32,000 bases of DNA from Alkanindiges illinoisensis DSM 15370 (lineage in GTDB: Bacteria; Pseudomonadota; Gammaproteobacteria; Pseudomonadales; Moraxellaceae): contig NZ_JHUX01000003.1 of assembly GCF_000619845.1 (NCBI RefSeq), positions 1,690,064 to 1,722,063 of the forward strand. The letters are read 5' to 3'. Shown one piece after another: positions 3,711 through 22,519 of this stretch. How positions within the stretch are numbered: the stretch's first letter is position 1; each line of letters starts with the position of its first letter. Made by a program: the position numbers and the translations under genes. The notes beneath the pieces were generated by a model that did no database searches, was not told the DNA's origin, and saw only the letters and a program-made list of their open reading frames with translations.

Positions 3711-4442
3711 ATGAGTCATTATCAGCAGCCTCGTCCACTAAAGGTCGTCGCCGTATCCGGTGGTTTAAATACGCCCTCCAAAACCGAAAGCCTGCTTGAT
3801 GCCATTCTCAACGAATTACAAAATGCCCTTGCTATTAATGTGCACTATATTAAGCTCAGTGAAATTGGCACGGGCCTGGGTGGTGTGATTAGCCGTAATG
3901 ATTTGCCAGCCAGTGTGCAGCAGGCCTTATCTGCCATTGAAACTGCTGATGTCCTGATCGTAGGTACACCGGTATACCGGGCATCCTTTACGGGCTTGTT
4001 TAAGCATCTGTTTGATTTTGTCGACCAGTTTGCTTTGGTGGATGTGCCTGTGCTACTCGCAGCTTCGGGCGGTAGTGACCGGCATGCGCTCGTGCTTGAA
4101 CATCAACTGCGTCCCCTGTTTAGCTTCTTTCAGGCACAAACCCTGCCTATTGGGGTGTATGCCACCGATCAGGATTTTACCAATTATCAGGTTAGCAGCA
4201 GTGTCTTGCTGGAACGCATTAAACTGGCTGCCACTCGTGCCCTGCCAGTATTTCAGTATGCCGCTACCCTGCCTGCACGCCAGACTAATGGGCAACATAA
4301 ACAGGGTACAGTTAAATTAAACCAGCCCATTGCCCAACCTGCTGTCCTGCCATCTGCACAGGCTTCCGGTATTGCAGGCGCAGGACAGGAATTGCCTGTC
4401 GAACAGCGTAACCCAGCCACATTTAAAGTGGTGAATGGATGA
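3711..4442 (+). CDS. NAD(P)H-dependent FMN reductase (SsuE/MsuE/SfnE-like) with a low-complexity C-terminal tail
   Basis: Motifs: KVVAVSGGLNTPSKT, ADVLIVGTPVYRASFTGLFKHLFD, LAASGGSDRHALVLEHQLRPLF. Start set at ATG 3711 (GGAG 7 nt upstream). The track's TTG start at 3633 adds a non-homologous leader. About 50 extra Q/A/P-rich residues follow the flavodoxin-like core. Confidence 0.85.
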   Translation: MSHYQQPRPLKVVAVSGGLNTPSKTESLLDAILNELQNALAINVHYIKLSEIGTGLGGVISRNDLPASVQQALSAIETADVLIVGTPVYRASFTGLFKHLFDFVDQFALVDVPVLLAASGGSDRHALVLEHQLRPLFSFFQAQTLPIGVYATDQDFTNYQVSSSVLLERIKLAATRALPVFQYAATLPARQTNGQHKQGTVKLNQPIAQPAVLPSAQASGIAGAGQELPVEQRNPATFKVVNG

Positions 4443-4738
4443 TTTCAACCATCAATTAGCCAAGCTGATATATTAATCTTTGGATGCAGTTTTTATCATA
4501 TGAAGTGATAGCGTTATTAGGCTAATTTTAGTTATATACTAACAGCGTTCCATAATATAAAATGACAAGCATCTTAATAATTAATTTTATTGGGATGCTT
4601 ATTTTCATTTAAACAAAACTATAAAATTAATAAATTGTCAAAATCATATTTTTAGCTTTTGTTATTCCTAATAATTCATTTTTAAATAATAAATAACTGT
4701 TTATGCTCTTAATATCCATTGATATGAGCTATTTAACC

Positions 4739-4954
4739 ATGACTATTTCTGCAATTAATGTACGCAATCAGTTTAAGGGAATTATTAAGGAAATTATTGA
4801 AGGCCCTGTGGTGTCGGAAGTGGACGTGGAAGCAGCACCGGGCCTGTTTACCTCGGTTATCACCACGCGCTCTGTAAAAGACCTGAACCTGCAAGTGGGC
4901 AGTGAAGTGATTGTGCTGATCAAATCCACTGAAGTTTCGCTGGCAAAGCTTTAG
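4739..4954 (+). CDS. ssuF: Small TOBE/Mop (molbindin-like) domain protein, SsuF-like
   Basis: 71 aa, MTISAINVRNQFKGIIKEI..GPV.SEVDV......TSVITTRSVKDL.L..GSEV..LIKSTEVS.AK. This is a single TOBE domain. Pseudomonas ssu operons end with such a protein (SsuF). The start (4739 or 4724) is uncertain because no clear SD is present. Confidence 0.7.
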   Translation: MTISAINVRNQFKGIIKEIIEGPVVSEVDVEAAPGLFTSVITTRSVKDLNLQVGSEVIVLIKSTEVSLAKL

Positions 4955-5008
4955 CCTGCTCTGTAAACCAGTTTATTCCAGCATTAAAACAGAAGGGATA
5001 AGTACACC

Positions 5009-5839
5009 ATGACCCAGCAATCAACCGGTGCTGTTTTAATACAGCATGTCAATAAAACCTATAGCCGTGCCGGTGAAGCACCATTACCCGTGCTGGAATA
5101 TATTTCACTGGATATTAAACCGGGCGAATTTATCGGCATTGTTGGCAGTAGCGGCTGCGGGAAATCCACCCTGCTGCGCCTGCTGGCAGGGCTGGAACCG
5201 TCGTTTGAAGGGAACATCAAGATTGATGGCCAGCCGATCCAGGGCACCAGTCTTGAGCGCGGCATTGTGTTTCAGGATCACCGTTTATTTCCGTGGTTAA
5301 CGGTGCGCGACAATATCCGCATTGCCTTGCAAAACAGCAAATTATCCCGTAGTGAACAGGATAAAACCATTGATGAGCATTTGGAACTGGTCGGTCTGAC
5401 TGCTTTTCAGAATGCCTATCCATCGCAGTTGTCAGGCGGTATGAGTCAGCGCGTGGCAATTGCCCGCAGTCTGGTTAACCGTCCCAATATCCTGTTGCTG
5501 GATGAACCATTTGGCGCACTGGATGCCTTGACCCGAAGTAACTTGCAACAGGAATTGCAACGCATCTGGCACACTGAAAAAATCACCATGATTATTGTCA
5601 CCCATGACGTTGAAGAAGCGGTTTTTCTGGGTAACCGTGTGGTGGTGATGCAGCCCAATCCCGGCAAAATCAAGCGAATTGTGTCGGTTGATTTACCGCA
5701 TCCCAGACAGCGGGATAGTGTCCGGCTGACAGCCATTAAACATGATATTTTAAGGGATTTTAGCCAGTTTTCCCTAGACCAGCTTAATGAGCTTTCCTTA
5801 ACCAGACAGCGCTTTGAGGAGTTTCAGTTTTCATGGTAA
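5009..5839 (+). CDS. ABC transporter ATP-binding protein, nitrate/sulfonate/taurine (SsuB/TauB) type
   Basis: Walker A GSSGCGKST, Q-loop VFQD, signature LSGGMSQR, Walker B LLLDEPFGALD, H-loop VTHD. No permease or binding-protein gene lies on the same strand next to it. Confidence 0.9.
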   Translation: MTQQSTGAVLIQHVNKTYSRAGEAPLPVLEYISLDIKPGEFIGIVGSSGCGKSTLLRLLAGLEPSFEGNIKIDGQPIQGTSLERGIVFQDHRLFPWLTVRDNIRIALQNSKLSRSEQDKTIDEHLELVGLTAFQNAYPSQLSGGMSQRVAIARSLVNRPNILLLDEPFGALDALTRSNLQQELQRIWHTEKITMIIVTHDVEEAVFLGNRVVVMQPNPGKIKRIVSVDLPHPRQRDSVRLTAIKHDILRDFSQFSLDQLNELSLTRQRFEEFQFSW

Positions 5840-6112: not shown

Positions 6113-7045
6113 ATGTCAGCTTTAACCCAACTTTCCAGCTCCATTGCTCAGGCCCCGCGCTGGTATGAGCACAGCATTCAAACCCTGGATACCGTGCGTA
6201 TTACGCCAATTCAAGGTGCTTTAGGGGCAATTGTTACTGGAATTAACGCCAGTTTGCCGCAAAGTGCTGAAGTGATTCTGGCGCTTAAACAGGCTTTGCA
6301 TGAACACCTGATTCTGGTGTTTAAACAGCAACAATTAGAAGATGAGCAATTGCTGTCTTTTGCCAGCTATTTTGGTGCCATTTTTAAACCACCCGCTGAT
6401 ATTCCGGTACTGGCCACTCAGACCGATACCGGTTTACCGCCTGATGTCGTGCCTGTATCCAATGCAGTAGGCGCCGGGGATTATACGGGTCATGGCGAAC
6501 TGACTCCGCACAGCGACCATCACTGGACACCCCAGCCTTCCAGTGGCTCACTGCTGTATGCCATTGAATTGCCCAAAGATGGCGGTGCAACCAGTTGGTA
6601 CAACACCGTGCAGGCTTATGCAGATCTGGATGATGATGCCCGACAGGAAATCGACCAGCTTCAGTTAATTACCTATAATCCCTTCTTGCGGATCAAGTCT
6701 GGTGGGCCATTCCCCAAATACCGCTTTTCTAACCAACCTGTGCTGGGCGCCGCTTTCCCTCATCCCTTGGTGCGCACTCATTCTGAAAGTGGCAAGCGCG
6801 GGATTTATCTGGATACCCACACGGAAGTTGAAGTAGTCGGCTATGATGACCAGCGTGGCGCCGCATTGATTGAAAAATTGCGTGCGCACATTGTGCAGCC
6901 AAAGTATCGCTATGAGCATCAATGGGAAACCGGCGATATTGTGTACTGGGACAACCAAGTCACCTTGCATTCACGCACTGCATTTCCGGCTGAACAGCGC
7001 CGCTTGCTCAAACGGGTGAGTCTGGCGGGTAATCGTCCGTTTTAG
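6113..7045 (+). CDS. TauD/TfdA-family Fe(II)/2-oxoglutarate-dependent dioxygenase
   Basis: 310 aa. It has an HxD iron motif (PHSDHHW), a distal His (VTLHSRT) and the DIVYWDN motif typical of the family. SD GAGG lies 8 nt before the ATG. Confidence 0.85.
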   Translation: MSALTQLSSSIAQAPRWYEHSIQTLDTVRITPIQGALGAIVTGINASLPQSAEVILALKQALHEHLILVFKQQQLEDEQLLSFASYFGAIFKPPADIPVLATQTDTGLPPDVVPVSNAVGAGDYTGHGELTPHSDHHWTPQPSSGSLLYAIELPKDGGATSWYNTVQAYADLDDDARQEIDQLQLITYNPFLRIKSGGPFPKYRFSNQPVLGAAFPHPLVRTHSESGKRGIYLDTHTEVEVVGYDDQRGAALIEKLRAHIVQPKYRYEHQWETGDIVYWDNQVTLHSRTAFPAEQRRLLKRVSLAGNRPF

Positions 7046-7062
7046 CAAATTGAGTAACCTAT

Positions 7063-7092
7063 AAAAAAAGCTATCCAGGGATAGCTTTTTTT
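7063..7092. terminator. Bidirectional Rho-independent terminator between convergent genes
   Basis: AAAAAAAGCTAT-ccaggg-ATAGCTTTTTTT. The hairpin has an A-run on one side and a T-run on the other. It sits between the stop at 7045 (+) and the stop at 7152 (-). Confidence 0.85.
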
Positions 7093-7151: not shown

Positions 7152-8279
7152 TTAATTGAATGCCAAATCCAGCTTGTCAGCTGCTTTGACAGACAAGCTG
7201 CGCTCTTCACCAATGAGGCCATATTTAATCAGGCGGGCACGGATAATATTACGGCTAATCCCAAGCAGTTTGGCAGTTTGCACCTGATTGCGGTGGCAGT
7301 ATTCATAGGCGACCTGAATCGTGGCTTCTTCAATCAACTGATCCAGTATTTCCCCGGAATGCACTGAAGCGGATTCAAACAGGTTTAACAGGGCCTGCTG
7401 TAAGTGTTGCTTGGGCAGCAGGTCTGTTTTGATCAAACCTGAGCGGGCCTGCTCTACATCAAGATGTGATTGCCCAGTTAAAGAGGAAAAGCAAAAATCG
7501 GCAGGTTGAATCTGATGGTTTTTGCACACCAGCAAGGCATGGTGAATGGCATTTTCCAGCTCACGGATATTGCCCGGATAAGTGTGACGCAGTAATTTTT
7601 GCTCAGCACTGGCACTAAATGAAGCCTGCGGATAGCCCAGACGCTGGCAATAATCCTGCACAAAATAGCGGGCCAGCGGCAAAATATCGCCTGGCCTGGC
7701 CGCCAGCGGTGCAATTCTCAATAAGGCCACATTCAGGCGATAGTACAGGTCTTCCCTGAACTTGCCAGCCTGCACCGATTCTTCCAGCCGGACATTGGTT
7801 GCGGCAATCACCCGGACGTTGAGTTTAATCGGTTTAAGTGAGCCAACCCGGTAAATTTCCCGTTCCTGTAGCACCCGCAGCAGTTTAACTTGCAGGGTTA
7901 AGGGCAAATCACCAATTTCATCCAGAAACAGGGTGCCATTATTGGCGGCCTCAAACCAGCCGACCTTGCTATGAATGGCCCCAGTGAAGGCACCTTTTTC
8001 ATGACCAAAGAGTTCACTTTCGGCAATCGATTCGGTAAATGCCCCACAATTCACGGCAATAAATGGCCCATTATACCGATGACTGAGCATATGAACATGC
8101 CGGGCAACCAGTTCCTTGCCGGTTCCGGTATCGCCAATAATCAGCACACTGGCTTCGCTGGGTGCAATCTGTTCTATTCTTTCCAGTAACTCGCAGGACT
8201 TCTGATCTTCATAGACCATGGCAGTGGCACGCTCTGACCGAAATAACCGGCGTGAATCAGGATGAGTTAATACTGACAT
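7152..8279 (-). CDS. Sigma-54-dependent transcriptional activator (bacterial enhancer-binding protein) lacking a receiver/sensor domain; SfnR-like
   Basis: AAA+ core with Walker A GDTGTGKE, the sigma-54 contact loop [15 protein letters not shown], Walker B LFLDEIG, and a C-terminal Fis-type HTH ([21 protein letters not shown]). Only about 30 residues precede the AAA+ domain. The SfnR analogy comes from its sulfur-gene context and is an inference. Confidence 0.9.
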
Positions 8280-8409: not shown

Positions 8410-9240
8410 TTAACGCTCTGTTTTCCATGCGGTTAAGCGTCGTTCAATCAGCAATAAGCTGTAATTAAACATCAGCCCTACGACAGTAATAATGACAATG
8501 CCAAAGAACATTTCCGGAATCTGGAAATTAAATTGCGCATAATTAATGAGATAACCCAGCCCTGCTTTGGCACCAATCATTTCAGCGGCAATCAGGATCA
8601 ACACTGAAAATGCACCCGCCAGACGAATGCCTACAAAAATGGTGGGAACCGCAGCAGGCAGGATGACCTTACGGAACAGTTTTACCGGCCCAAGACCCAT
8701 GGTGCGTGCTGATTTAATCAGTAAGGGATCAACATTGCGTACCCCACTGACGGTATTCAGCAGGATCGGCCAGTTGCAGGCATAAATCACCAGTGCAATC
8801 TTGGAGGTTTCACCAATCCCCAAAAACAGAATGAAGACCGGCAATAAGGCCAGCGCGGCTGTATTTCTAAACAGCTCCAGCAAAGGACTAATCAGGTCAG
8901 AAAATGGTTTATACCAGCCAATCGCCAGCCCCAATGGAATGGCAATGATAATGGCAATTACAAAACCACTGAGTGAACGAATCAAGCTGGCTTGCAAATG
9001 TGCCAGTAATTGGCCGTTTAACGTCAGTTGCCAGCCGGTTTGCATGACCACGGAAAATGGCGGCAAAAATGCCGGGTCAACTGCGCCCACGCGTGGTAAC
9101 ACTTCCCATAAGGCCAGAAATACCACAATGGCAATGGAGCGCTTAAAGATAGTATAAAAAATACTGAAATCCACTTGCGGCGCTTTTAAGGTGGTTTTGG
9201 GTAAGATCAGCGTTTGTGTATGTTTGGTGCCAGACATCAT
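8410..9240 (-). CDS. ABC transporter permease, SsuC/TauC family (permease 3)
   Basis: 276 aa and multi-TM. It carries the binding-protein-dependent transport family EAA-like loop (IKSARTMGLGPVKLFRKVILPAAVP). SD GGGAGA lies just upstream of ATG 9240. Confidence 0.85.
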   Translation of the reverse strand: MMSGTKHTQTLILPKTTLKAPQVDFSIFYTIFKRSIAIVVFLALWEVLPRVGAVDPAFLPPFSVVMQTGWQLTLNGQLLAHLQASLIRSLSGFVIAIIIAIPLGLAIGWYKPFSDLISPLLELFRNTAALALLPVFILFLGIGETSKIALVIYACNWPILLNTVSGVRNVDPLLIKSARTMGLGPVKLFRKVILPAAVPTIFVGIRLAGAFSVLILIAAEMIGAKAGLGYLINYAQFNFQIPEMFFGIVIITVVGLMFNYSLLLIERRLTAWKTER

Positions 9241-9273: not shown

Positions 9274-10122
9274 TCACGCAACCCGCTGTTTGGTTTTTTC
9301 CTGTTGCTGCGCCTTGAGCACTTCTTCACGCAGCAACGTCCAGACCTGATGTCTTAACTGGCCAAACTCGGCGCGCGAACGCACATCCTCATGCTTGCTA
9401 CGTAAAGACGCAGGCACGTCAATAACCTGTTTAATGCGACCCGGCCGTGAGGTCATGATGGCAATGCGCTGCCCCAGATAAATGGCTTCATCAATGCTAT
9501 GGGTAATAAAAATAATGGTCTTGCCGGTTTGCTGCCAGATTCTCAATAGCTCTGCCTGCAGGGTTTCGCGGGTTTGGGCATCCAGCGCGGCAAACGGTTC
9601 ATCCATCAGCAGCACTTCAGGGTCATAAGCCAGACTGCGGGCAATGGCAACGCGCTGTTTCATGCCACCGGACAGTTCTGCCGGATAATGATGTTCAAAA
9701 TCAGACAGGCCCACCAGTTGCAGGAAATGCCGGGCAGTTTTGCGGCGCTCGGTCTTGTCCACCCCTTTGGCTTCAAGGCCAAATTCAATATTTTCCAACG
9801 TGGTTAGCCACGGAAACAAGGCATATTGCTGAAACACAATGCCCCGGTCCAGCGCAGGCCCAGTGATGGGTTTATCGTCAATGGTCATTTGTCCGCTGGT
9901 GGGCGTGGTGAGGCCGGCCAGCAAATCCAGCAAGGTGGATTTACCACAACCACTAGGGCCAACAATGGCCAGAAATTCACCTGTTTTCACATCCAGTGAT
10001 ACGTTATCAACCGCCACAAAATCATCAGCCTGTTGTTTTTTACCTTTGATTTTTTTGGCAGGAAAGGTTTTATGCACATTGATGATCCGTAATTTATTGA
10101 CCGGGTTTATTTGAGTGCTCAT
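9274..10122 (-). CDS. ABC transporter ATP-binding protein, SsuB/TauB type
   Basis: Walker A GPSGCGKST, signature LSGGMKQR, Walker B LLMDEPFAALD, H-loop ITHS. Start set at ATG 10122 (MSTQINPV...), 1 nt after the stop of the upstream gene. The track's start at 10200 would overlap that gene by 77 nt. Confidence 0.9.
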   Translation of the reverse strand: MSTQINPVNKLRIINVHKTFPAKKIKGKKQQADDFVAVDNVSLDVKTGEFLAIVGPSGCGKSTLLDLLAGLTTPTSGQMTIDDKPITGPALDRGIVFQQYALFPWLTTLENIEFGLEAKGVDKTERRKTARHFLQLVGLSDFEHHYPAELSGGMKQRVAIARSLAYDPEVLLMDEPFAALDAQTRETLQAELLRIWQQTGKTIIFITHSIDEAIYLGQRIAIMTSRPGRIKQVIDVPASLRSKHEDVRSRAEFGQLRHQVWTLLREEVLKAQQQEKTKQRVA

Positions 10123-10123
10123 G

Positions 10124-11164
10124 TTATTTCTCACTGGCTGTAGGGCTTGCTTGAGTGGCATACGGATTAAACTGGTTGGTAAACAGACTATTGGCCTCAA
10201 TTTGATTGGGCTTTAGCAGGCCCTGTTTTACAAACAAATCAATCCAGCGCTGAAATTGGGCTGTAGTGAGCAGCCCACCTTTATCCACCACGCCAAAGCT
10301 GTGCCAGTACTGCACAAACTGGTCATTTTCCTGCCGCTTGCGTTTATGAATAATGGCTTTAAAACGGGCAATAACCTGTTCGCGTGGCGTGCTTTTGCTC
10401 CACTCCACGGCTTTGGCCACACCTGTGACAAACTGCTTCACGGTGTCGGGATGATCCTTGATAAACTGCTGGGTAAACACATAGCTACCCGCCGTAAAGC
10501 TGCCGTATAAATCGGTATCGGAAAACACCTTGCGAATGCCGCCACGTGCCAGTGCCTTATCCTGAAACACGGAAACCAGCGACGCAGCATCCACCTGTCC
10601 TGCCCGCAAAGATTGCTCGGTACTGGCAGGCGGGAGCACGGTCAGTTCAACCTTATTAATGTCTTCAGGCGATAAGCCCTGCTGGGCCAGATAGTCCTTC
10701 AAGACAAATTCATAATGAGCGCCCAGTGTATTGACCGCGACTTTTTTACCAATCAAATCACGGGCAGTATGAATGGGACTATCATCCTTGACGTAATAAC
10801 CCACCCAGCTTTTGTCGTCACTGCCGTAGGAACCCACCACGGATTTAATTTTGACATTGGCAGCAGCCAGCTTAATGATGGCGCCATTAAATGCAGTGGC
10901 CACATCGACATCACCCGTCGCCAGTGCCTGTAGATCCTGTGGGCCGCCCTGTACACTACCCACATAATTGAGCTTCAATGGCCCTAAATAGCCCAGATCC
11001 TCAGCCAGTTCAGGCAAGCTGACCGTGCCAGGCAGGCTTTGGTAGCGTAACTCGGTGACAGGTTGCCCTACACGTGCAGACTGATCTTCTGAATGCTTGC
11101 TGCAGGCAGTCAATAGGCTAGATAGAGCAAGGGCCAATACCGCAATTCGTTTATTTAATATCAT
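10124..11164 (-). CDS. Lipoprotein substrate-binding protein, aliphatic sulfonate (SsuA/NMT1-like) family
   Basis: Start at ATG 11164 (MILNKRIAVLALALSSLLTAC) gives a signal peptide with lipobox LTAC, and GGAGAA lies upstream. The body resembles NMT1/SsuA-type periplasmic binding proteins. No internal Met, and the only Cys is the lipobox Cys. Confidence 0.8.
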   Translation of the reverse strand: MILNKRIAVLALALSSLLTACSKHSEDQSARVGQPVTELRYQSLPGTVSLPELAEDLGYLGPLKLNYVGSVQGGPQDLQALATGDVDVATAFNGAIIKLAAANVKIKSVVGSYGSDDKSWVGYYVKDDSPIHTARDLIGKKVAVNTLGAHYEFVLKDYLAQQGLSPEDINKVELTVLPPASTEQSLRAGQVDAASLVSVFQDKALARGGIRKVFSDTDLYGSFTAGSYVFTQQFIKDHPDTVKQFVTGVAKAVEWSKSTPREQVIARFKAIIHKRKRQENDQFVQYWHSFGVVDKGGLLTTAQFQRWIDLFVKQGLLKPNQIEANSLFTNQFNPYATQASPTASEK

Positions 11165-11174: not shown

Positions 11175-11951
11175 CTAACCCTGCTGACGCCAAACCAGCC
11201 AGCGACGTTCCAGATATACAGCCACACTGTTTAAGCCCACACCAATAATGCCAATGGTGAGCAGGCCAAATACAATCAGTCCCACATCCTGCGCAGCGCG
11301 GCCATTGATCACAATATTGCCAAGACCTACGCCATAGCTGGCCAGCAAAAATTCCGAGCCAATGGTGGCCAGCCACGCAAAGATCAATCCAAGCTGTAGA
11401 CCCACAAAAATCTGCGGTGCTGCGGCAGGTAGAATCAGTTTGCGCAGTAATTGCCAGGGGCTAAACTGATACACCCGTGCTACTTCATATTGCTGTAACG
11501 GAATGGCATTAACCCCTGCCAGCGTATGCAGCGCCACCGGGTAAAATACTGACAGTGTGATAAACAAGACCTTGGCACTATTGCCATAGTCCAGAAACGT
11601 GGAAATTAAGGGCAGCCAGGCAAACAGGGACACCTGACGCAATACATTAAAACTGGGCGCCAACAGATAGCTGGCCCAGCGCGATACGCCAATTAAAATG
11701 CCAAAAGCAATTCCCAGAAAACTGCCAACGGCAAAGCCACTTAAGTCACGCAGCAGGCTAGCTCCAACACCCTGCCAGAACGCTGCCGTAAATAACTGCT
11801 GCCAGCCCACATGCAAGACCGCACTTGGCGCAGGAATAAGTTTTGGGTTAAGCCAGTGCTGCCAGGACGCCAGCGCCCATAACAGAATAAACAGAACCGG
11901 AATAACCCAGCCACGCCAGTTAAAGGAAGGTGATGATTTAGTATGTGCCAT
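11175..11951 (-). CDS. ABC transporter permease, SsuC/TauC family (permease 2)
   Basis: Multi-TM with an EAA-like loop (YEVARVYQFSPWQLLRKLILPAAAP). Start set at ATG 11951 (MAHTKSS...), 10 nt after the stop of the upstream permease. The track's start at 12002 would overlap that gene. Confidence 0.85.
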   Translation of the reverse strand: MAHTKSSPSFNWRGWVIPVLFILLWALASWQHWLNPKLIPAPSAVLHVGWQQLFTAAFWQGVGASLLRDLSGFAVGSFLGIAFGILIGVSRWASYLLAPSFNVLRQVSLFAWLPLISTFLDYGNSAKVLFITLSVFYPVALHTLAGVNAIPLQQYEVARVYQFSPWQLLRKLILPAAAPQIFVGLQLGLIFAWLATIGSEFLLASYGVGLGNIVINGRAAQDVGLIVFGLLTIGIIGVGLNSVAVYLERRWLVWRQQG

Positions 11952-14172: not shown

Positions 14173-15261
14173 TTACTTGCCTGTACCTGTGCCTGCCACC
14201 TTGTTGCCATTCACATCAAAACGCGGCCAGAAATTTTCCAGATGCAGCTCTTTTAAGGCAGTATTGAGGTATTTCGGTTCAATCCAGTTGTCGACAGTGA
14301 CAGGACGACGGATCAATTTAAAATCAATGGATTGCTGTACAGATTTTTTAAGTGAATTAATCGCATAATCATCCCAGTAAGGACTATTGCGGTCTTTAAG
14401 GTCAGCATCAGCCCAGTCTTTTTTATAGTCCAGATAAGGCGTACCACTTTGTGCCCACAGTTTGTACTGCGCATCACGGTTAGCTTCGCGTGAACTCCAC
14501 TCATCCTGCTTGATCAGGGTGGTTACCACACGCTGCACGACACCTGGATATTTTTTCTCAAAATCCTCGGTTACCCAGAAACTCAAAGGCCCGTTTAAAT
14601 TTGGGTCTTTGCGTATTTCAATAATGCGCTTGGCCACGCCGCGTGATTCCAGTGTCCATGGGCTGGTAATGGTGCCGTCAATATCCCCGGTGGCCAGTGA
14701 AGTCTGGGCAGAATAGGTATCCTGGCTAATGATGCGAAAATCTTTTTCCGTAAAGCCGTACTTGCGCAGCAAGCGTCCCAGAATTAACTGGGCATTGGTT
14801 CCCTTGAATACAGAAATGGTTTTGCCTTTTAAATCCGTCAGACTTTTTGCGGATGAATCTGCGGGAACCGTAAAATAAACCGGGCCAAAACGTCCTGCCA
14901 CAAACAGCAATTTGGTTTTCAGTCCAGTGGAGCGCCCTACAATGGCAGGCAAGTCACCATGCCCTGCACCAAAATCCACTTTGCCATTGGCTAATGCTTC
15001 ATTTAAGGCAGGCCCTGCACCGGGAAAGAAGATCCACTTGACCTTAATGCCATCTTTTTTAAATTCTTCCTCAAGCACACCACGCAAGTGCGCACTGGCC
15101 ACAAAGGAATAACCCACTTTTGGCTTGCCACCCACACCAGCACCCGGCACACCCAGCCGGATTTCAACCGGCTTACCCACATCAGCCAGCGCAGGCAAGC
15201 CTGCACTTAAAAATAATCCAGCGGTTGCAGCAATTAAAAAACGTCGTGTTATTTGTTTCAT
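14173..15261 (-). CDS. Periplasmic substrate-binding protein, SsuA/AtsR/NMT1-like, with an RR-containing signal peptide
   Basis: The leader MKQITRRFLIAATAGLFLSAGLPALA/DV is twin-arginine-like, with an AxA cleavage site. The body is of the sulfonate/sulfate-ester binding protein type. SD GAGAG lies 8 nt upstream. No internal Met or Cys in 362 aa. Confidence 0.8.
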   Translation of the reverse strand: MKQITRRFLIAATAGLFLSAGLPALADVGKPVEIRLGVPGAGVGGKPKVGYSFVASAHLRGVLEEEFKKDGIKVKWIFFPGAGPALNEALANGKVDFGAGHGDLPAIVGRSTGLKTKLLFVAGRFGPVYFTVPADSSAKSLTDLKGKTISVFKGTNAQLILGRLLRKYGFTEKDFRIISQDTYSAQTSLATGDIDGTITSPWTLESRGVAKRIIEIRKDPNLNGPLSFWVTEDFEKKYPGVVQRVVTTLIKQDEWSSREANRDAQYKLWAQSGTPYLDYKKDWADADLKDRNSPYWDDYAINSLKKSVQQSIDFKLIRRPVTVDNWIEPKYLNTALKELHLENFWPRFDVNGNKVAGTGTGK

Positions 15262-15282: not shown

Positions 15283-16770
15283 TTAAAAGGTGTACTGGAA
15301 CTGGGCCTGTGCTTCGTTAAAGTCTTTTTGCACCGGGGTTTCATGGGCATAATCCCAGTGATTTAAGCCCACCTGAAACTTGGTGGTTTCGGCAAAGAAG
15401 AAATTCAGTCCGAGTGTCTGAATGGTGACTTTGCCTTGCCCTTGCCCGGCAATGCCGGTCACATCAGCACTTTTATTCGGGTTATAAGTGTCAAAGCGAT
15501 AAAAGGTTTGAATGGAATTTGGCCATGAATCATCAAACTTGGCGGCGGATTTGATACTGTTATAAAACTGGTCACCCAGGGTATAAAACAGGGTGGCGGT
15601 ATGCCCTTCCGCTTTGACTTCACTGGCATTGCCGCTGGCAGTGGCATAATCCGAACGGCCCTGCACATATTCGTAAGTCACACCAAATGGCGCATGGTTG
15701 TAATACACATCAAAGCCCAGCCGGTCATTGCGGCCATTACCATCCAGAACTGTGGTTCCGTTGACCACATTCTTGCTACCCTTGATATAGGACGTACCAA
15801 ATTTCAGCTCACGGAAAATGCTGGCGTAGTCCACAGGCAGGGTGAATGCAAGGCGGCCAATGTAATCCTTGTGGTTATTGTCATCCAGCTTGTTGGTGCC
15901 ATTGCCATTGATCACCCCCAGCGCATACTCAAGTAACGGTGCGCGATAGTTGGAGCCATAATCCACAAAGGGCTTAACATCACCGCGTAAAATCAGCCCG
16001 CTCTGGCGATTAAACAATCCCAGTTGAGCCAGACCTGTAGCCACATTAATGGTGGGCCGTAAATCTTCGGGCGATTGAGGGTCCAACCCAAACGGAATAA
16101 GCTGCTGGCCAAAGGTGACATTGAGTTTGGGAATCTCCAGCCCGCCATTGGTTGAGGTGAAGTGGTAGCGCACAAATGCATCAGCCAGATTCAGATCACT
16201 GGCACTGCCCGTTGCAGTCGTACGCTTGCCATAGCTAAATGACAATTGATACTCCAGATTCTTGCCTTCCTTATAATCACGGTATAAGTTGCCACGTACC
16301 CCAATCAGGGCAGTTGGAATATCAAAGGTATTACGGCGGGCGCTATTGGGTGCCGGATTGCCTGCTGTCGTGGATTCATCCTGTCCCTGTGCACGCACCT
16401 GAACCGTGCCATACAGCGTGGTATCCCGGGTTGATTTCACCGTTTTGCGCTCATACTGGCGACCATCATCGTATTTATAATTTTCCAGATCAGTCCTGAA
16501 TCCAGCCAGATCACTTTGGGTTGCAGTCTGAATTGAAGTATCTTCCTCGCCATTTTCGTCAGTGGCTGAAGTCACCGATGTGTCAGAAGCAGTTGTATTG
16601 TCGGTTGCTTTTTGCTGCTTGAGCGCATCAACCTGTTGCTGCAATGCCACCAGTTGAGCCTGCAATTGCGCCAGATTTTCTTCCAGACTGGTATCGGCCC
16701 AGACGGTGGTACTTGGCACAACTCCCGCCAGTACAATGGCAATGGAACCTGCCAAAATAGTGTGCTTCAC
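15283..16770 (-). CDS. Outer-membrane porin, OprO/OprP (Porin_O_P)-like, with an N-terminal coiled coil
   Basis: GTG start with AGGGG 7 nt upstream. Signal peptide ...STTVWA/D, then a heptad-like segment LEENLAQLQAQLVALQQQVDALKQQ and an acidic/Thr-rich linker. Alternating beta-strand patterns follow, ending in QFQYTF with a C-terminal Phe, which is the outer-membrane beta-barrel signature. No internal Met or Cys in 495 aa. Confidence 0.7.
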   Translation of the reverse strand: MKHTILAGSIAIVLAGVVPSTTVWADTSLEENLAQLQAQLVALQQQVDALKQQKATDNTTASDTSVTSATDENGEEDTSIQTATQSDLAGFRTDLENYKYDDGRQYERKTVKSTRDTTLYGTVQVRAQGQDESTTAGNPAPNSARRNTFDIPTALIGVRGNLYRDYKEGKNLEYQLSFSYGKRTTATGSASDLNLADAFVRYHFTSTNGGLEIPKLNVTFGQQLIPFGLDPQSPEDLRPTINVATGLAQLGLFNRQSGLILRGDVKPFVDYGSNYRAPLLEYALGVINGNGTNKLDDNNHKDYIGRLAFTLPVDYASIFRELKFGTSYIKGSKNVVNGTTVLDGNGRNDRLGFDVYYNHAPFGVTYEYVQGRSDYATASGNASEVKAEGHTATLFYTLGDQFYNSIKSAAKFDDSWPNSIQTFYRFDTYNPNKSADVTGIAGQGQGKVTIQTLGLNFFFAETTKFQVGLNHWDYAHETPVQKDFNEAQAQFQYTF

Positions 16771-16841: not shown

Positions 16842-16858
16842 TTCAACAAGTGTGCCAA
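16842..16858 (-). promoter_or_regulatory. Candidate sigma-54 promoter of the porin/transport operon
   Basis: Minus strand reads TTGGCACACTTGTTGAA, i.e. TGGCAC-N5-TTGA. The -24 element is perfect and the -12 element has one mismatch (TTGA for TTGC). It lies about 75 nt upstream of GTG 16770. Confidence 0.6.
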
Positions 16859-17236: not shown

Positions 17237-17959
17237 TTAATCCAGCCTTGATAACTGCCGTATTCGATTTAAATCAATAATACGCACCTGACTATAATTC
17301 CACTCAATAATTCCTTCGGCAAAAAACCATTGCAGGCTTTTATGCAGGGTTTGTCTGGAAATATTAAATTGCTCGGCAAAATCCTGCTGGCGGATTTTTA
17401 AATGAATCAGGCCGGGATGGTTTTTTACCTCACCATACTGGCTATATAAGCGGTTTAAATAATAGGCAATCTTCTGGGTTAAACTGGCAGTCTGGATATA
17501 GCGGCTTTGTTCAAATAATCCATACATACGTTGGCTCATTAACTGCAACACCTGCCAGAGGGCCAGGGGCTGCTGCCTGAGTTGCTGGATATATACTGAT
17601 CCGGGCAATATGGCAATTTCAACCTGCCCCATGCTAAAAAAATCATAATTGACAGCCTGATGCTGTAATACCGCCACCAGATTAAACACAGAATGCTGGG
17701 TCATATAATCACTGATCTTGAGCTGGCCATCCTGTTGCAACCAGCCCACTTGCAAGGTGCCTTTTAACAGCACATAAATGTCTTCGACCACTTGCTGATG
17801 TGCTAACAGCAATTGTCCCGAATTAAATTTTTTAACAATAGCTTGATCACACAGCGCCTGCTGAGCGTCCTGACTGAATGCGCTAAACGCCGCATCCTGC
17901 TGTAAAATTGCACTCAGCCGTTGCCGTGCGTTAGGCTCACTATCCTGATGAAACATCAT
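17237..17959 (-). CDS. Crp/Fnr-family transcriptional regulator
   Basis: 240 aa. An N-terminal cNMP-binding-like beta-roll is followed by a C-terminal HTH (RQDFAEQFNISRQTLHKSLQWFFAEGII). No Fnr-type N-terminal Cys cluster. Confidence 0.8.
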   Translation of the reverse strand: MMFHQDSEPNARQRLSAILQQDAAFSAFSQDAQQALCDQAIVKKFNSGQLLLAHQQVVEDIYVLLKGTLQVGWLQQDGQLKISDYMTQHSVFNLVAVLQHQAVNYDFFSMGQVEIAILPGSVYIQQLRQQPLALWQVLQLMSQRMYGLFEQSRYIQTASLTQKIAYYLNRLYSQYGEVKNHPGLIHLKIRQQDFAEQFNISRQTLHKSLQWFFAEGIIEWNYSQVRIIDLNRIRQLSRLD

Positions 17960-18071: not shown

Positions 18072-19088
18072 TCAGGATGCCTTTTCATAAATCCGTCCTT
18101 CCTCTGAACGTAAATTGGAAATATCCTGATTTTTGACATTCTTGATCACCTGACTTGGACGGCCATCTACCCCAACCGGGATATCTCCCTCAATCGTTAC
18201 CCGGGAAGCCACCCGCAGCGCATCGCCATAATCATTGATGGCACGATGCTGGGTAGCACGATTATCCCAAATCGCCACATCACCTACGGCCCAGCGCCAG
18301 CGCACAATGTTTTCCCACTGGGTAATATGATTCTGGAATTCCTCAAATAAATAGCGCGAATCCGTGCTATTTAGTCCACTAAAACGCTTAAAAAAATGGC
18401 CAAGTACCAGTGTTTTTTCACCTGTTTCAGGATGCACACGCACCAGCGGATGTTCGGTTTCAATTTCTACCGCAGTCCTGAACAGTTTGCGGTTTTCTAC
18501 CGTATTTTCAGCATGATGCGGTACACCATGATCGGCATAATCATAGGCATTGGTATGCACTGCCCTTAAGCTATCCGCCAGCGTCTTTAACACTGGGGGT
18601 AAGCCTGCATAAGCTGAAGTGGTGTTTGCCCAGACTGTATCACCGCCCACATCCGGGGTTACCACATTTCTTAAAATCGAGGCTTTAGGATAATTGGGCA
18701 AAAACGTAATATCGGTATGCCATGAATCAGCACGGCCACCGCGTGAATCAATCGACAAGGTATGCGCTGTGCCATCTTTAATCGGGACACTCGGATGATT
18801 TAACGGATTGCCCAGTAAACTGGCAAATGCTTCCTGCTCCAAATCGGTTAAATGTTGCTGGCCCCGAAAGAAAATGACTTTATGTTTTAATAAGGCATGC
18901 TGAATTTCTGATACCACATCACTGCTTAAATCACCTGCCAGTTTTACACCAGAAATTTCGGCACCGATTCGTACGGTAACGGGATTTACCTGAATATGCT
19001 GGTACTGATATTCGGGATTATAGGCATGATCTGCATGGCTAGGTATATGGGTGTGGACATCGGTATTGGCGATTGCTAGCTGGCTCAT
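18072..19088 (-). CDS. TauD-family Fe(II)/2-oxoglutarate dioxygenase (taurine dioxygenase / AtsK alkylsulfatase-like)
   Basis: Canonical TauD motifs SWHTDITF (HxD), [20 protein letters not shown] and a distal His/Arg region. It also has a His-rich N-terminal extension of about 30 aa ([23 protein letters not shown]). No internal Met or Cys in 338 aa. Confidence 0.85.
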
Positions 19089-19242
19089 TTTAAATAACCT
19101 CTGTAGATTCTAATAAACAGCTTTTTACTGTCTCTGTTAATGATTATGCCAACAACTCACCTTAACTCTGTCAAATTATTAACATTATCTAGAATAAAAA
19201 ATTAATAGAATATCTATTATGATCAATAGGAAAATTAAAAAT

Positions 19243-19291
19243 AAAAAAACCTGCCAATCCTACATTTTATTGTAAAACTGGCAGGTTTTTT
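19243..19291 (-). terminator. Rho-independent terminator after the aldo-keto reductase gene
   Basis: AAAAAAACCTGCCA...(22-nt loop)...TGGCAGGTTTTTT. The stem is flanked by an A-run and a T-run. Confidence 0.75.
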
Positions 19292-19410
19292 AAAGTGTTC
19301 TATGGCTATTTTAGTTTGATACCAAATAATCGTTATAATATTATCGGTAAAAAGTATTTAATTCGTATTCACCAATAACTAGTTTATCTATAGCCACTCA
19401 TTTTAATTGA

Positions 19411-20460
19411 TCAAGGGCTTGGATTTGGGAACAACTGGTGAATCCTTTCAATCTCCTGCAACACCTCATCAGATAAGCGCACATCAATACTGTCAATATC
19501 CGTTTTAAGCTGCGCAAGGTTGGTTGCCCCAATAATATTGCTAGTTACAAAACGGCGGGTGTTGACATAAGCCAGCGCCAGCTGTGCCGGGTCAAGGCCA
19601 TGGGCTTGGGCTAAATCAACATAGGCCTGGGTTGCCTGTTCTGCATTCTCGCTTTTATAGCGGGCAAACCGTTCAAACAGCGTGATTCTGGCGCCTGCTG
19701 GCTTGGCACCATTGAGGTATTTCCCGGTTAAATGCCCAAACGCCAGTGGTGAATAGGCCAGTAAACCCACATTTTCACGAATGGAAATTTCGGCATTGCC
19801 AATTTCAAACGTACGGTTGAGCAAGCTATAGGGATTCTGTATGGAAACAACCCGGGCTAGTCCTTGCTGCTCGGCAATGCGTAAAAACTGGTTAACCCCC
19901 CACGGCGTTTCATTGGACAGGCCAATATGCCGGATCTTGCCTGCCTTCACCAGATCATCCAATACCTGCAGGGTCTCTGCAATCGGTACAGTGTCTTCAT
20001 CCTCGACGTGTTCATAGCCCAGTTGACCAAAAAAATTGGTGGTTCGATCAGGCCAGTGCAACTGGTATAGATCAACATAATCAGTTTGCAAGCGCTTTAA
20101 GCTGTCATTAAGTGCCGCTTCGATATTGGCACGGTCATGACGGGTTTGGCCGCCACGCACGTTTCCGGCCTGTCCAGCATTACGCACCCGTCCTGCCACT
20201 TTGGTTGCCAGGATGATCTGGCCGCGTTTTCCTGTTTTTTGCAGCCATGTTCCAATATATTTTTCGGTTGAACCCTGTGTTTCCGGGCGTGGCGGCACCG
20301 GATACATCTCGGCCGTATCAACCAGATTCACCCCCTGCCCAATGGCATAATCCAGTTGCGCATGCGCCTCGGCTTCAGTGTTTTGCTCGCCCCATGTCAT
20401 CGTACCTAATGCAATCACACTGACATCAATATCGGTTGTACCCAGTTTTCTATATTGCAT
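19411..20460 (-). CDS. tas: NADP(H)-dependent aldo-keto reductase, Tas-like
   Basis: 349 aa. From memory it is collinear with E. coli Tas (MQY..., GTMT.GEQN.EA.AHAQLDYA..QG.NL.D.AEMYPVPPRPETQG.TE.Y.G.WL, LKRLQTDY.DLYQ.HWP, IQNPYSLLNR.FE.G.AE, LTGKYLNGAKPAGAR.TLF.RF.RY). I did not run an alignment. Confidence 0.8.
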   Translation of the reverse strand: MQYRKLGTTDIDVSVIALGTMTWGEQNTEAEAHAQLDYAIGQGVNLVDTAEMYPVPPRPETQGSTEKYIGTWLQKTGKRGQIILATKVAGRVRNAGQAGNVRGGQTRHDRANIEAALNDSLKRLQTDYVDLYQLHWPDRTTNFFGQLGYEHVEDEDTVPIAETLQVLDDLVKAGKIRHIGLSNETPWGVNQFLRIAEQQGLARVVSIQNPYSLLNRTFEIGNAEISIRENVGLLAYSPLAFGHLTGKYLNGAKPAGARITLFERFARYKSENAEQATQAYVDLAQAHGLDPAQLALAYVNTRRFVTSNIIGATNLAQLKTDIDSIDVRLSDEVLQEIERIHQLFPNPSP

Positions 20461-20474
20461 TCATTTAATCCTGT

Positions 20475-20518
20475 AAAAAATGCCTGAAACCATCAGTGTT
20501 TAGGGTTCAGGCATTTTT
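20475..20518 (-). terminator. Rho-independent terminator after the nitroreductase locus
   Basis: Minus strand reads AAAAATGCCTGAACC-ctaaacactgat-GGTTTCAGGCATTTTTT. The stem has one bulge and a T-run follows. Confidence 0.7.
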
Positions 20519-20524
20519 ATTGAT

Positions 20525-21154
20525 TCATCTATTCGTTAAATAAAAATTTTCCTTCGGCCACAAAACGATCAATTGATCGTCGTGGCGTCGGTTGTTGTCG
20601 GTTAGTTGTGCTCTAGCCTGCAAGCCTTGCGGCAAATGATCTTTACTGCCTTGCTGACCAATCACAATAATCGCTTCCAGTTGATAGTCTTCAGGAATAT
20701 GCAAACGCTGGCGTACCTGTGCCTGATCATAACCACCAATTGCATGGGTATGCCAGCCTTTCAAGGATGCCTGCAAGGCCAGATGCGCCCATGCTGCGCC
20801 TGTATCAAAGGAATGACTGGTTAAATTCACTGCATCCTGCTGATTTGGCGGCAAAAATGTCTTTTTTGACAAGACCAGTACCAGCGCTGAAACCTGTGCT
20901 GCCCATGACTGATTATATTCAGACAGGGTTCCAAATAATGTATTCCAGTGTGGCGTATTGGTAAGCGCATAAACAAAACGCCACGGCTGTGAATTCTATG
21001 CCGACGGCGCCCAGCGTGCAGCCTCAAAAAACTGTTTTAAGGTTACATGGTCAATTTCTGTCTGTTTAAAACCACGGGGTGACCAACGCTGTACAAACAG
21101 TGCGTCCACCTCATGCGCTGGTTGGCGCTGCTCTGCCTCAAATAAAACGGACAT
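20525..21154 (-). pseudogene. Nitroreductase-family flavoprotein gene interrupted by a single in-frame TAG at codon 53
   Basis: ATG 21154 (GGAG 8 nt upstream, 15 nt after the monooxygenase stop) opens MSVLFEAEQ...FVQRWSPRGF...FFEAARWAPSA. A TAG follows at 20996-20998, and the same frame continues NSQPWRFVYAL...SHSFDTGAAWAHLALQASLKGW.THAIGGYD... to the stop at 20525. The stop falls inside the conserved APSxxNxQPW motif. The track shows only the distal 115-aa piece. Confidence 0.8.
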
Positions 21155-21169
21155 TTTATTGTCTCCAGC

Positions 21170-22519
21170 TCAAGACGCTTTGGCCGCATGCTTTGCCAGC
21201 ACATACTGGTTTTCTGGACGTGCCAAGCCCAGATTTTCCCTTAAGGTCTTGCCTTCGTACTCGGTGCGGAACAGGCCACGACGCTGCAGCTCTGGCACCA
21301 CTAGATCAACAAAATCATTCAAACCGCCGGGTGTGGTCGGTGGCAATACGTTAAAGCCATCCGCAGCTTCATTTTCAAACCATTCCTGTAACTGGTCTGC
21401 CACCTGCTCAACCGTACCAATGAGCTGCCAGTGTCCGCGCACTCCTGCCACCCACTCATACAACTCGCGGATGCTGTAATTATTTTTCTTGGCAATATCA
21501 ATAATCAGGGCACGACGGCTAATCTGGGTTTCGGTTTCTGGCAATTCAGGCAATGGGCCATCCAGATCATACTTGGACAAGTCCCAGCCGCCTGTTAAGC
21601 CACTGAGCAAGGCAAGCCCTGCTTCAGGACGAATCAGTCTGGTAACTTGCTCATATTTTTCCCGTGCCTCTGCTTCGGTTTTCCCCACAAAAGCTGATAC
21701 TCCAGGCAGAATAAGCAGCTCTTCAGGGTGGCGGCCATATTTGGCTAAACGGCTTTTAACATCACGGTAAAACGCCTGCGCACTGGTTAGATCCTGATGC
21801 GCCGTAAAAATTACTTCAGCATAGCGGCCAGCCAGTTCACGGCCCGGCTCAGATGAACCTGCCTGCACAATCACCGGATAACCCTGAGGCGAGCGTGGCA
21901 CGTTTAGCGCACCTTTGACCGAGTAATATTTGCCCTTATGGTTAGGATGATGCAGCTTATCAATATCATAAAAAATGCCAGTGTCCTTGTTATATAAAAA
22001 CGCATCATCTTCCCAGCTATCCCAGAGCTTCTGAATCAGCTCAACATATTCCTGCGCCCGCTCATAACGGTCAGCATGGGTAGGCTGCTTGTCATAACCG
22101 AAATTATAAGCCGCAGATTCTGATGCGGTAGTCACCACATTCCATGCTGCCCGTCCATTGCTAATGTGATCCAAGGAGGCAAACTTGCGCGCCAGCAAGT
22201 ACGGTTCTTCGTAGGTTGAAGATGCTGTTGCAATAAAACCGATATGCTTGGTTACAGCGGATAATGCAGCAAACAATGTGACTGGTTCAAAGCCTGCCAC
22301 TTTGTCACTCACGCCAATGGTTTCACTGGCACCGAAATTGACCGATAAACCGTCTGCCAGAAAATAGGCATCAAACAAGCCACGCTCGGCGGTCTGGACA
22401 ATTTCCTTCACATATTCAAAATCCAGCGCGCGTGCTGGCTGGGACTCCGGCAATCGCCATGCTGCTACATGCTGGCCGGTGGTTGGAATAAATGCCCCTA
22501 ATCGAATTTTTCTGCTCAT
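21170..22519 (-). CDS. FMNH2-dependent monooxygenase, luciferase-like (NtaA/SnaA/DszA/SoxA subfamily)
   Basis: The N-terminus (IRLGAF..TTGQHVAAWR.P, LDFEYVKEIVQTAERGLFDAYFLAD), the roughly 450-aa length and the C-terminal region are typical of the DszA/NtaA group. I prefer ATG 22519 (GGAG 9 nt upstream) to ATG 22534 (no SD). Confidence 0.85.
   Translation of the reverse strand: MSRKIRLGAFIPTTGQHVAAWRLPESQPARALDFEYVKEIVQTAERGLFDAYFLADGLSVNFGASETIGVSDKVAGFEPVTLFAALSAVTKHIGFIATASSTYEEPYLLARKFASLDHISNGRAAWNVVTTASESAAYNFGYDKQPTHADRYERAQEYVELIQKLWDSWEDDAFLYNKDTGIFYDIDKLHHPNHKGKYYSVKGALNVPRSPQGYPVIVQAGSSEPGRELAGRYAEVIFTAHQDLTSAQAFYRDVKSRLAKYGRHPEELLILPGVSAFVGKTEAEAREKYEQVTRLIRPEAGLALLSGLTGGWDLSKYDLDGPLPELPETETQISRRALIIDIAKKNNYSIRELYEWVAGVRGHWQLIGTVEQVADQLQEWFENEAADGFNVLPPTTPGGLNDFVDLVVPELQRRGLFRTEYEGKTLRENLGLARPENQYVLAKHAAKAS

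Follow-up and report, generated by a model that had tools for sequence, protein, structure and literature searches.

Which force removes practically every Met and Cys from a set of functionally diverse proteins encoded in a single chromosomal region? This question is raised by a gene cluster of Alkanindiges illinoisensis DSM 15370, which spans 3.7-22.5 kb of a 32,000-nucleotide stretch of contig NZ_JHUX01000003.1 (positions 1,690,064 to 1,722,063; termed the window hereafter, all coordinates referring to it). We translated every candidate gene of the window and tallied Met and Cys from the sequence itself. Ten products of the cluster, ranging from cytoplasmic oxygenases to a predicted outer-membrane porin, together contain one single sulfur residue besides their initiator Met, and the best explanation is, very probably, classical sulfur sparing in scavenging proteins that are presumably induced by sulfur starvation.

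The ten products, among them two substrate-binding proteins (SBPs), a permease of an ATP-binding cassette (ABC) transporter and a luciferase-like monooxygenase (LLM), are the following. All lack internal Met and Cys, except for the lipoprotein SBP, in which sulfur is restricted to Met1 and the lipidated Cys21 (lipobox LLTAC).

3711..4442, plus strand: MsuE-type NAD(P)H:FMN reductase, 243 aa (TIGR03566, FMN_reduc_MsuE equivalog, 241.9 bits, above the cut-off; identical to RefSeq WP_084494783.1)
4739..4954, plus strand: single-domain TOBE/Mop protein, 71 aa, which we take to be comparable to SsuF (PF03459, TIGR00638; identical to RefSeq WP_026471226.1)
6113..7045, plus strand: TauD/TfdA-family Fe(II)/2-oxoglutarate dioxygenase, 310 aa (PF02668, 1.3e-50; the best PDB matches are taurine dioxygenases, ~1e-29)
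10124..11164, minus strand: SsuA-family lipoprotein SBP, 346 aa (NMT1, SsuA_fam; identical to RefSeq WP_026471232.1)
11175..11951, minus strand: ABC permease, 258 aa (PF00528; identical to RefSeq WP_026471233.1)
14173..15261, minus strand: SsuA-family periplasmic SBP, 362 aa (SsuA_fam, 1.7e-35)
15283..16770, minus strand: putative outer-membrane porin (NCBI 'DUF3138' or OprO/OprP-like), 495 aa (names of homologues, AlphaFold2 (AF2) model, Foldseek)
18072..19088, minus strand: AtsK-like, predicted 2-oxoglutarate-dependent sulfate-ester dioxygenase, 338 aa (PDB 1OIH, P. putida AtsK, E 8e-105)
20525..21154, minus strand: nitroreductase-family pseudogene, interrupted reading frame of 209 codons (two lesions; the repaired 203-aa product is free of Met and Cys)
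21170..22519, minus strand: NtaA/DmoA/DszA-type FMNH2-dependent LLM monooxygenase, 449 aa (TIGR03860, 595 bits; identical to RefSeq WP_026471239.1)

A first-pass annotation of this DNA had reported eight products without internal Met or Cys, the lipoprotein with Met1 and Cys21, and a Tas-like aldo-keto reductase (AKR) with two internal Met (M21 and M52) and no Cys, and all of these numbers hold on recount. The set was incomplete, however, as the sulfur-free permease had been overlooked, and the heading of 'soluble proteins' does not suit the porin, a predicted outer-membrane protein.

Pooled, the ten products have 1 in-frame ATG/TGY in 3,091 codons (0.03 per 100), i.e. the codon of the lipidated Cys, versus 3.03 per 100 codons in the remaining window genes, so that ~93 Met/Cys codons would be expected where 1 is observed (Poisson P ~3e-39). 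Off-frame ATG and TGY are about equally frequent in depleted and other window genes (8.9 versus 8.7 and 7.4 versus 6.1 per 100), and both gene sets share the same GC content. Thus, the depletion was imposed on the protein and does not result from nucleotide bias: the Met/Cys depletion of the ten products is real and exists at the protein level. The genes named as ordinary in the first-pass annotation are indeed so, with 19 Met+Cys in the 411 residues of an Old Yellow Enzyme-type reductase, 16/414 in a saccharopine dehydrogenase-like protein, 11/250 in the lipoprotein encoded at 22803-23555, 8/375 in a sigma-54-dependent activator and 6/240 in a Crp regulator. The two regulators are nevertheless poor choices as controls unrelated to sulfur, since synteny ties both of them to the cluster in many species.

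To place these counts in an evolutionary context, 80 loci around porin homologues were fetched from ~80 genomes of Acinetobacter, other Moraxellaceae and several Betaproteobacteria, and Met+Cys of the orthologues were counted in the regions aligned to the window proteins (identities 40-89%). Zero Met+Cys was found in 13/13 orthologues of the AtsK-like dioxygenase and in all three of the second TauD-family dioxygenase (6113-7045), in 36 of 53 porins (maximum 3) and in 6 of 9 nitroreductases, the median being 0 in each case. The SBP encoded at 14173-15261 (24/83 with zero, median 1), the LLM monooxygenase (2/35, median 1) and the sulfur-free permease (16/68, median 2) have orthologues that come close to zero, and near-identical variants (at least 90% identity) from other samples stay at zero. 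For the background open reading frames (ORFs) of the 80 loci, in contrast, the median is 2.97 Met+Cys per 100 residues, and the few sulfur-free ones among them are linked to the cluster: their products are a sulfatase of the Ser type, a sulfate-binding protein and proteins resembling nitroreductases, glutathione S-transferases (GST-like) and amidohydrolases. A sulfatase encoded at L031:244-2556 has 770 aa with 0 Met and 0 Cys, and its catalytic formylglycine must thus derive from Ser and not from Cys. The completeness of the depletion therefore belongs to the whole orthologous cluster and is not peculiar to this locus. A genome-wide or compositional bias, or mere chance, can be given next to no weight as an explanation: we found no point in its favour, and besides the agreement in GC content and off-frame trinucleotides, the low Poisson probability and the ordinary background of the related genomes, the neighbouring genes on both strands of the window have 2-4.6 Met+Cys per 100 residues.

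The breadth of this pattern raises the possibility that the families were purged long ago and have merely inherited their composition since, without present selection, and the DUF3138 porin and the AtsK-type dioxygenase, which are sulfur-free across genera and classes, would fit such inertia. However, at 40-60% identity all positions had time to mutate, the Met codon is one step away from Leu, Ile and Val codons, off-frame ATG/TGY are plentiful, and yet zero or one sulfur residue has been kept in dozens of lineages. Moreover, window proteins lie at the extreme of the orthologue distributions, with 0 versus a median of 1 in the LLM monooxygenase and 1 (the lipidated Cys) versus a median of 4 in the lipoprotein SBP, which implies continued purging and makes inertia a highly unlikely explanation. 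The sulfur that is left appears at positions that resist replacement: M21 of the Tas-type AKR is kept in 19/20 and M52 in 17/20 orthologues, and Cys21 of the lipoprotein is invariant in 19/19. This conservation shows that the residual sulfur is constrained, i.e. functionally pinned.

As several of the products are oxygenases or flavin reductases, Met and Cys might instead have been removed as a protection from oxidation or reactive sulfur, given that the enzymes deal with O2, FMNH2 (which gives rise to H2O2), Fe(II) and sulfite, each of them harmful to thioethers, thiols and disulfides; in P. aeruginosa, antioxidant defences are switched on under sulfur starvation (PMC12581299). Enzymes of the same chemistry argue against this idea. 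In the wider LLM family, whose members use FMNH2 and O2, 150 representatives at 40-56% identity have a median of 9 Met+Cys and zero in six cases only, which shows that the enzyme folds themselves do not entail the depletion; the window protein carries Ile or Leu at positions with frequent Met in the family, and Ala at those with frequent Cys. Similarly, Rv3406 from M. tuberculosis, which shares the chemistry of AtsK, has retained Met and Cys. Furthermore, the porin, the two SBPs, the TOBE protein and the membrane permease carry out no redox chemistry and are equally depleted. As non-redox components are depleted and relatives of the same chemistry contain sulfur, avoidance of oxidation fails as an alternative, and we regard it as improbable.

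Absence of Cys and a low Met count are common among secreted and outer-membrane proteins, and the porin and the SBPs could be unremarkable if exported proteins are generally subject to economy or to constraints from folding. Low values in OmpF from E. coli (0 Cys, 4 Met) and in an adhesin encoded at 24763-31968 (minus strand), a trimeric autotransporter with 9 Met+Cys in 2,401 residues (7 Met, all beyond residue 1723, and 2 Cys), agree with this notion. Export does not account, however, for the six cytoplasmic products and the inner-membrane permease, the 1.1 Met+Cys per 100 residues of OmpF contrast with 0-0.09 in the DUF3138 family, and the non-sulfur lipoprotein encoded at 22803-23555 carries 9 Cys. 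Thus, we consider it very doubtful that general constraints on exported proteins underlie the depletion. The adhesin exhibits YadA head, stalk and anchor domains as well as an ESPR signal.

Sulfur sparing, which had already been invoked in the first-pass annotation, is in line with a depletion at the protein level that is confined to products of a cluster for sulfur acquisition, and this assignment of the cluster is based on the predicted functions of its genes. The remaining components, including a transporter of the major facilitator superfamily (MFS), are:

5009..5839, plus strand: ABC ATPase, 276 aa (PF00005; 3 internal Met, 1 Cys)
7152..8279, minus strand: sigma-54-dependent activator without N-terminal sensor, 375 aa (PF00158, AAA_lid, weak HTH_8; 2 internal Met, 6 Cys)
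8410..9240, minus strand: ABC permease, 276 aa (PF00528; 6 internal Met, 1 Cys)
9274..10122, minus strand: ABC ATPase, 282 aa (PF00005; 4 internal Met, 1 Cys; identical to RefSeq WP_026471231.1)
11962..12807, minus strand: ABC permease, 281 aa (PF00528; 5 internal Met, 0 Cys)
12816..14066, minus strand: MFS transporter, 416 aa (PF07690; 11 internal Met, 5 Cys)
17237..17959, minus strand: Crp/Fnr-family regulator, 240 aa (PF00027, PF13545; 5 internal Met, 1 Cys)
19244..19291, minus strand: strong hairpin terminator 3' of the AKR gene
19411..20460, minus strand: Tas-type NADP(H) AKR, 349 aa (NF007912 equivalog, 511 bits)

The functions predicted from homology to MsuE, the SsuA family, TauD/AtsK and NtaA/DszA point to sulfur acquisition. 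The protein encoded at 18072..19088, which can be aligned to 1OIH over residues 31-314 with matching WHTD, TQH and C-terminal Arg motifs, is probably an AtsK-like sulfate-ester dioxygenase, its substrate being a prediction from this similarity; we assume, by analogy with TauD, that these motifs comprise the HxD...H iron ligands and the Arg that binds 2-oxoglutarate. P. putida AtsK itself has 0 Met/Cys within the aligned 284 residues. The closest PDB matches of the monooxygenase (21170..22519) are YtnJ/MoxC from B. subtilis (4e-114) and DszA (6e-101). In the related loci the genes recur in the order LLM-(nitroreductase)-Tas-(TauD)-(Crp)-porin-SBP-MFS-permeases-SBP-ATPase-permease-sigma-54 activator; orthologues of the activator adjoin ABC genes in 42 loci, and the order of the AtsK-like gene (18072-19088), Crp and porin is seen in 10, identifying both regulators as conserved parts of the cluster as judged from synteny. 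The cluster is syntenic across genera, a plasmid search with positions 14000-22600 and tRNA and Rfam scans of the window yielded zero matches, and thus nothing suggests that the cluster is mobile. Altogether, we assign the region to a conserved chromosomal cluster predicted to scavenge organosulfur compounds.

Within this cluster the two ATPases and two of the permeases have 5-7 Met+Cys each, which we counted as ordinary sulfur content, and the sulfur-free permease (11175-11951) and its partner (11962-12807) differ with 0 versus 5 Met. The MFS gene is a sulfur-rich exception (16 Met+Cys) that sits between the genes of the sulfur-free SBP and the permeases. The string of porin and ABC genes, including the MFS gene, looks like a single operon, co-transcription being suggested by the spacing. 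Orthologues of the MFS protein with 11-22 Met+Cys occupy the same position, beside an ABC importer, in most related loci. Two long hairpins flanked by A/T stretches, at 7046-7151 and 19244-19291, help to set operon boundaries; the former lies between the convergent genes of the TauD-family protein (6113-7045) and the sigma-54 activator and looks bidirectional. The proposal of the first-pass annotation that the composition marks membership of the regulon can thus be kept in one direction: sulfur-free composition predicts membership, whereas ordinary composition, as in the MFS protein, does not exclude it.

On this basis we suggest the following scenario. Anionic sulfonates and sulfate esters would enter via the DUF3138 porin, the SsuA-family SBPs would bind these organosulfur substrates and the ABC transporter would import them. 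In the cytoplasm, desulfurisation would be carried out by the AtsK-like dioxygenase, the second TauD-family dioxygenase and the NtaA/DszA-type FMNH2 monooxygenase, the latter supplied with reduced flavin by the MsuE-type FMN reductase, and the aldehyde by-product would probably be removed by the Tas-type reductase. Such scavenging proteins would be produced in bulk precisely when Met and Cys are scarce. In P. aeruginosa starved of sulfur, induction exceeds 2,800-fold for SfnG and reaches 470-fold among Msu/Ssu proteins (PMC12581299), and with homologues being induced this strongly, each Met or Cys would be a real drain on the sulfur pool. In the abundant components, selection has thus probably swapped practically every dispensable Met (for Leu, Ile, Val or Gln) and Cys (for Ala, Ser or Val), so that the machinery would neither consume the nutrient it seeks nor depend on scarce Met-tRNA and Cys-tRNA for its translation. 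Sulfur would be kept where function demands it, i.e. in the lipidated Cys and the two Met of the AKR, or where copy number is low, as may be the case for the regulators, the ATPases, two permeases and the MFS protein.

Several observations weigh against sulfur sparing, or at least against its simplest form. Induction by sulfur limitation in A. illinoisensis is inferred from homology and context only, and the background rate of Met and Cys was derived solely from the other genes of the window. The sulfur-rich MFS gene lies within the same putative operon, which suggests that co-transcription does not enforce depletion. A sulfur-poor adhesin without evident link to sulfur metabolism is encoded in the neighbourhood of the cluster, so low sulfur by itself is not specific. 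Finally, the -12 element is degenerate in the sigma-54 motif that precedes the porin gene in the window, and a candidate sigma-54 site 5' of the monooxygenase gene (22585-22600) was discarded, as it is not conserved in relatives.

The composition of individual products also depends on where their reading frames begin. The first-pass annotation had favoured the shorter of the possible start codons at 3711, 11164 and 22519, arguing that longer versions add internal Met, and these starts are supported by Shine-Dalgarno sequences (GGAG 7 nt 5' of 3711, AGGAG 7 nt 5' of 11164 and GGAG 9 nt 5' of 22519) and by RefSeq, whose proteins are identical to the short versions. No comparable Shine-Dalgarno sequence is found upstream of the longer starts, and the long ORF versions were not found in a collection of 15 billion proteins. 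The short starts are thus the correct ones; the argument from composition agrees with the other evidence and is not needed. The sulfur-free cytoplasmic products all begin with Met-Ser or Met-Thr (starts 3711, 4739, 6113, 19088, 21154 and 22519), and the sulfur-free permease (start 11951) begins with Met-Ala. With such N-termini the initiator Met is probably excised and recycled, although starts with Met-Ser, Met-Thr or Met-Ala do not statistically distinguish the sulfur-free set from the other window genes (6/10).

The nitroreductase gene was listed in the first-pass annotation as an interrupted reading frame and as a further case of the depletion, but it adds no evidence. Two independent lesions are present instead of one, namely a TGG to TAG change at 20996-20998 and, at ~20591-20604, an insertion of 14 nt (TAACCGACAACAAC), leaving the last ~30 codons out of the ancestral frame; once the insertion is removed, the conserved C-terminus ending in AQPTPRRSIDRFVAEGKFLFNE is restored. 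An intact sulfur-free orthologue of 208 aa (L085:5503-6129), with Trp at the position of the TAG codon, is present in a relative with a porin of 97% identity. Inactivation is therefore recent, and the composition of the pseudogene is inherited and uninformative. That the TAG might be a sequencing error was rejected, as it is also present in an assembly from a separate run (possibly of the same strain) and is accompanied by the second lesion. A hairpin is located at ~20470-20510, 3' of the pseudogene.

How might the cluster be controlled? In the sigma-54-dependent activator, PF00158 covers residues 22-185 of 375, and the HTH_8 match is weak (5e-4, below the cut-off). Two candidate sigma-54 promoters, with 1-3 mismatches to the motif, were found in the window:

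3656..3671, plus strand: TGGCATGGATTTCGCC, GG-N10-GC, ~40 nt 5' of the start of the FMN reductase and within the rejected longer ORF
16842..16857, minus strand: TGGCACACTTGTTGAA, 72-87 nt 5' of the porin start, with a degenerate -12 element (TTGA, not TTGC)

The former is a single-sequence match with 3 mismatches to TGGCAC-N5-TTGCW, its GG-N10-GC being better than that of the porin site. With 3 mismatches allowed, a loose pattern shows no enrichment in the window (251 occurrences versus 239 expected), and for sigma-54 sites information came only from comparing positions between loci. Over 3 Mb of the related loci, both strands included, 60 matches to the strict motif TGGCAY-N5-TTGC were obtained; 18 lie directly 5' of the porin and ~10 lie 5' of the preceding amidohydrolase-like gene, a strong enrichment ahead of the porin operon, and none was found 5' of other cluster gene families, LLM orthologues included. 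In many species the porin gene accordingly stands behind a predicted sigma-54 promoter. A TGGCAT near 19150, 5' of the AtsK-like gene, was dismissed as it has no -12 element. By analogy with SfnR, which the architecture resembles, we infer control by a sigma-54/SfnR-like activator. The amidohydrolase-like gene encodes an Amidohydro_2-family protein of ~500 aa with one Met, is found directly 5' of the porin in L016 (8299-9840) and ~20 other loci and often stands behind a sigma-54 promoter; in the window it is replaced by an AT-rich spacer of 469 bp (16771-17236).

The porin alone adds something to what is otherwise a further case of a phenomenon already known. Its N-terminus (...VPSTTVWA/DT) resembles a signal peptide, and its terminal Phe495 is invariant. 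In the AF2 model, which is of moderate confidence (pLDDT 64), an N-terminal coiled coil is followed by a beta-barrel, and Foldseek retrieves VhChiP, OprP, OprO, Omp32 and OmpF at E ~1e-11 (2O4V, 2e-11; 4RJW, 1e-10), with a probability of 1.00 for VhChiP, OprP, OprO and OmpF. The model thus suggests that 15283..16770 encodes an outer-membrane beta-barrel resembling trimeric porins. The coiled coil predicted at residues ~27-57 and ~85-114, ahead of the barrel, is unusual for general porins of proteobacteria. The barrel has no match in Pfam or NCBIfam, even when Pfam hits up to E 10 are included, PF07396 is listed in the records of just a few homologues, and a profile search of the PDB returned coiled-coil noise and no sequence similarity to any solved porin. 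Among the 120 best homologues (down to 47% identity), 70 have zero Met+Cys and none has more than 3. An SsuA-family SBP is encoded directly 3' of the porin in 69/80 loci, and 66 of these 69 SBPs have at most 2 Met+Cys.

DUF3138 has next to no literature: one paper in the collection searched mentions it, and the role guessed there differs from that of an organosulfur channel. From genomic context and composition, we see an even chance that DUF3138 porins form a sigma-54-dependent, sulfur-starvation-induced outer-membrane channel for anionic organosulfur compounds, i.e. the sulfur counterpart of the phosphate-starvation porins OprP/OprO, substrate and anion selectivity being predicted from the synteny with SsuA-type SBPs. 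If so, the sulfur-free composition of DUF3138 proteins across Gamma- and Betaproteobacteria would be a mark of this role, and the uptake route of Alkanindiges would be sulfur-free from the porin via the SBPs and one permease subunit to the cytoplasmic enzymes, the mature proteins containing, after signal-peptide cleavage or Met excision, no sulfur save one lipidated Cys.

Sulfur sparing is an established principle, and this locus leaves the understanding of the phenomenon unchanged. Its value is rather practical: with one sulfur residue in ~3,100, the cluster is an unusually clean natural example, and the ~80 orthologous clusters constitute a comparative series in which selection on single atoms may be measured. 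Moreover, the signature offers a testable function for a little-studied porin family and flags likely members of the sulfur-starvation response in related clusters, e.g. the amidohydrolase-like protein of ~500 aa, the Ser-type sulfatase and the GST-like and nitroreductase-like proteins.

The closest parallels are the sulfate-starvation-induced (SSI) proteins of E. coli and Pseudomonas (tauABCD, ssuEADCB, AtsK), which likewise comprise SsuA/TauA SBPs, TauD/AtsK dioxygenases, an FMN reductase with an FMNH2 monooxygenase, and an ABC transporter. In E. coli K-12, SsuE and TauA have 0, TauD 1, SsuA 3 and SsuD 4 Met+Cys, i.e. 0.54 per 100 over 1,494 residues, compared to ~2 per 100 in TauB, TauC, SsuB and SsuC and ~3 per 100 in neighbouring genes. 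Thus, in both systems the soluble, abundant parts are nearly sulfur-free (0-1 per 100 in tau/ssu) and the ATPases and permeases are less depleted, and P. putida AtsK is as sulfur-free over the aligned region as the AtsK-like protein of the window. The depletion in A. illinoisensis is more complete, however, as the ten products should contain ~17 sulfur residues at the density of the E. coli soluble set and 1 is observed (P ~1e-6). The striking completeness emphasised in the first-pass annotation is therefore fair in quantitative terms (0.03 versus 0.54 per 100), but it does not set this island apart, its orthologues being at or near zero as well. Compared to the SSI systems, the depletion here also reaches a porin of the predicted outer-membrane type and one integral-membrane permease, and regulation appears to involve sigma-54/SfnR-like and Crp-family proteins rather than CysB/Cbl alone.

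According to titles cited in PMC13352529 and PMC8234197, SfnR is a CysB-regulated sigma-54 activator of Pseudomonas. As in the SfnR regulon, a sensor-less sigma-54 activator is encoded beside msuE- and LLM-type genes, with candidate GG-N10-GC promoters upstream of putative target operons. In contrast to sfnFG, the main conserved sigma-54 target seems to be the porin-ABC operon, whose own -12 element is degenerate in the window; the likeness of the activator to SfnR is one of architecture. OprP and OprO, the phosphate-starvation anion porins of P. aeruginosa, are outer-membrane channels of a starvation regulon, placed upstream of an importer that depends on a binding protein, which parallels the role proposed for the DUF3138 porin; its predicted fold matches theirs, and NCBI assigns some DUF3138 homologues to the OprO/OprP family by name. 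The DUF3138 porin differs from both in having an extra N-terminal coiled coil and neither detectable sequence similarity nor a Pfam barrel match.

Proteins of low sulfur content have been described in sulfur-starved P. putida (Scott 2007, as cited in PMC8557817). Sulfur sparing itself, as cited in PMC5513900, was first reported for the Met/Cys-free phycobiliproteins of Calothrix (Mazel & Marliere 1989), and Baudouin-Cornu (2001) extended the principle to sulfur-assimilation enzymes. In these cases, and presumably in the cluster analysed here, the proteins adaptively purged of Met and Cys are ones produced in large amounts when sulfur is limiting. Whereas in Calothrix sulfur-free isoforms replace abundant housekeeping proteins, in A. 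illinoisensis it is the acquisition machinery itself that is sulfur-free.

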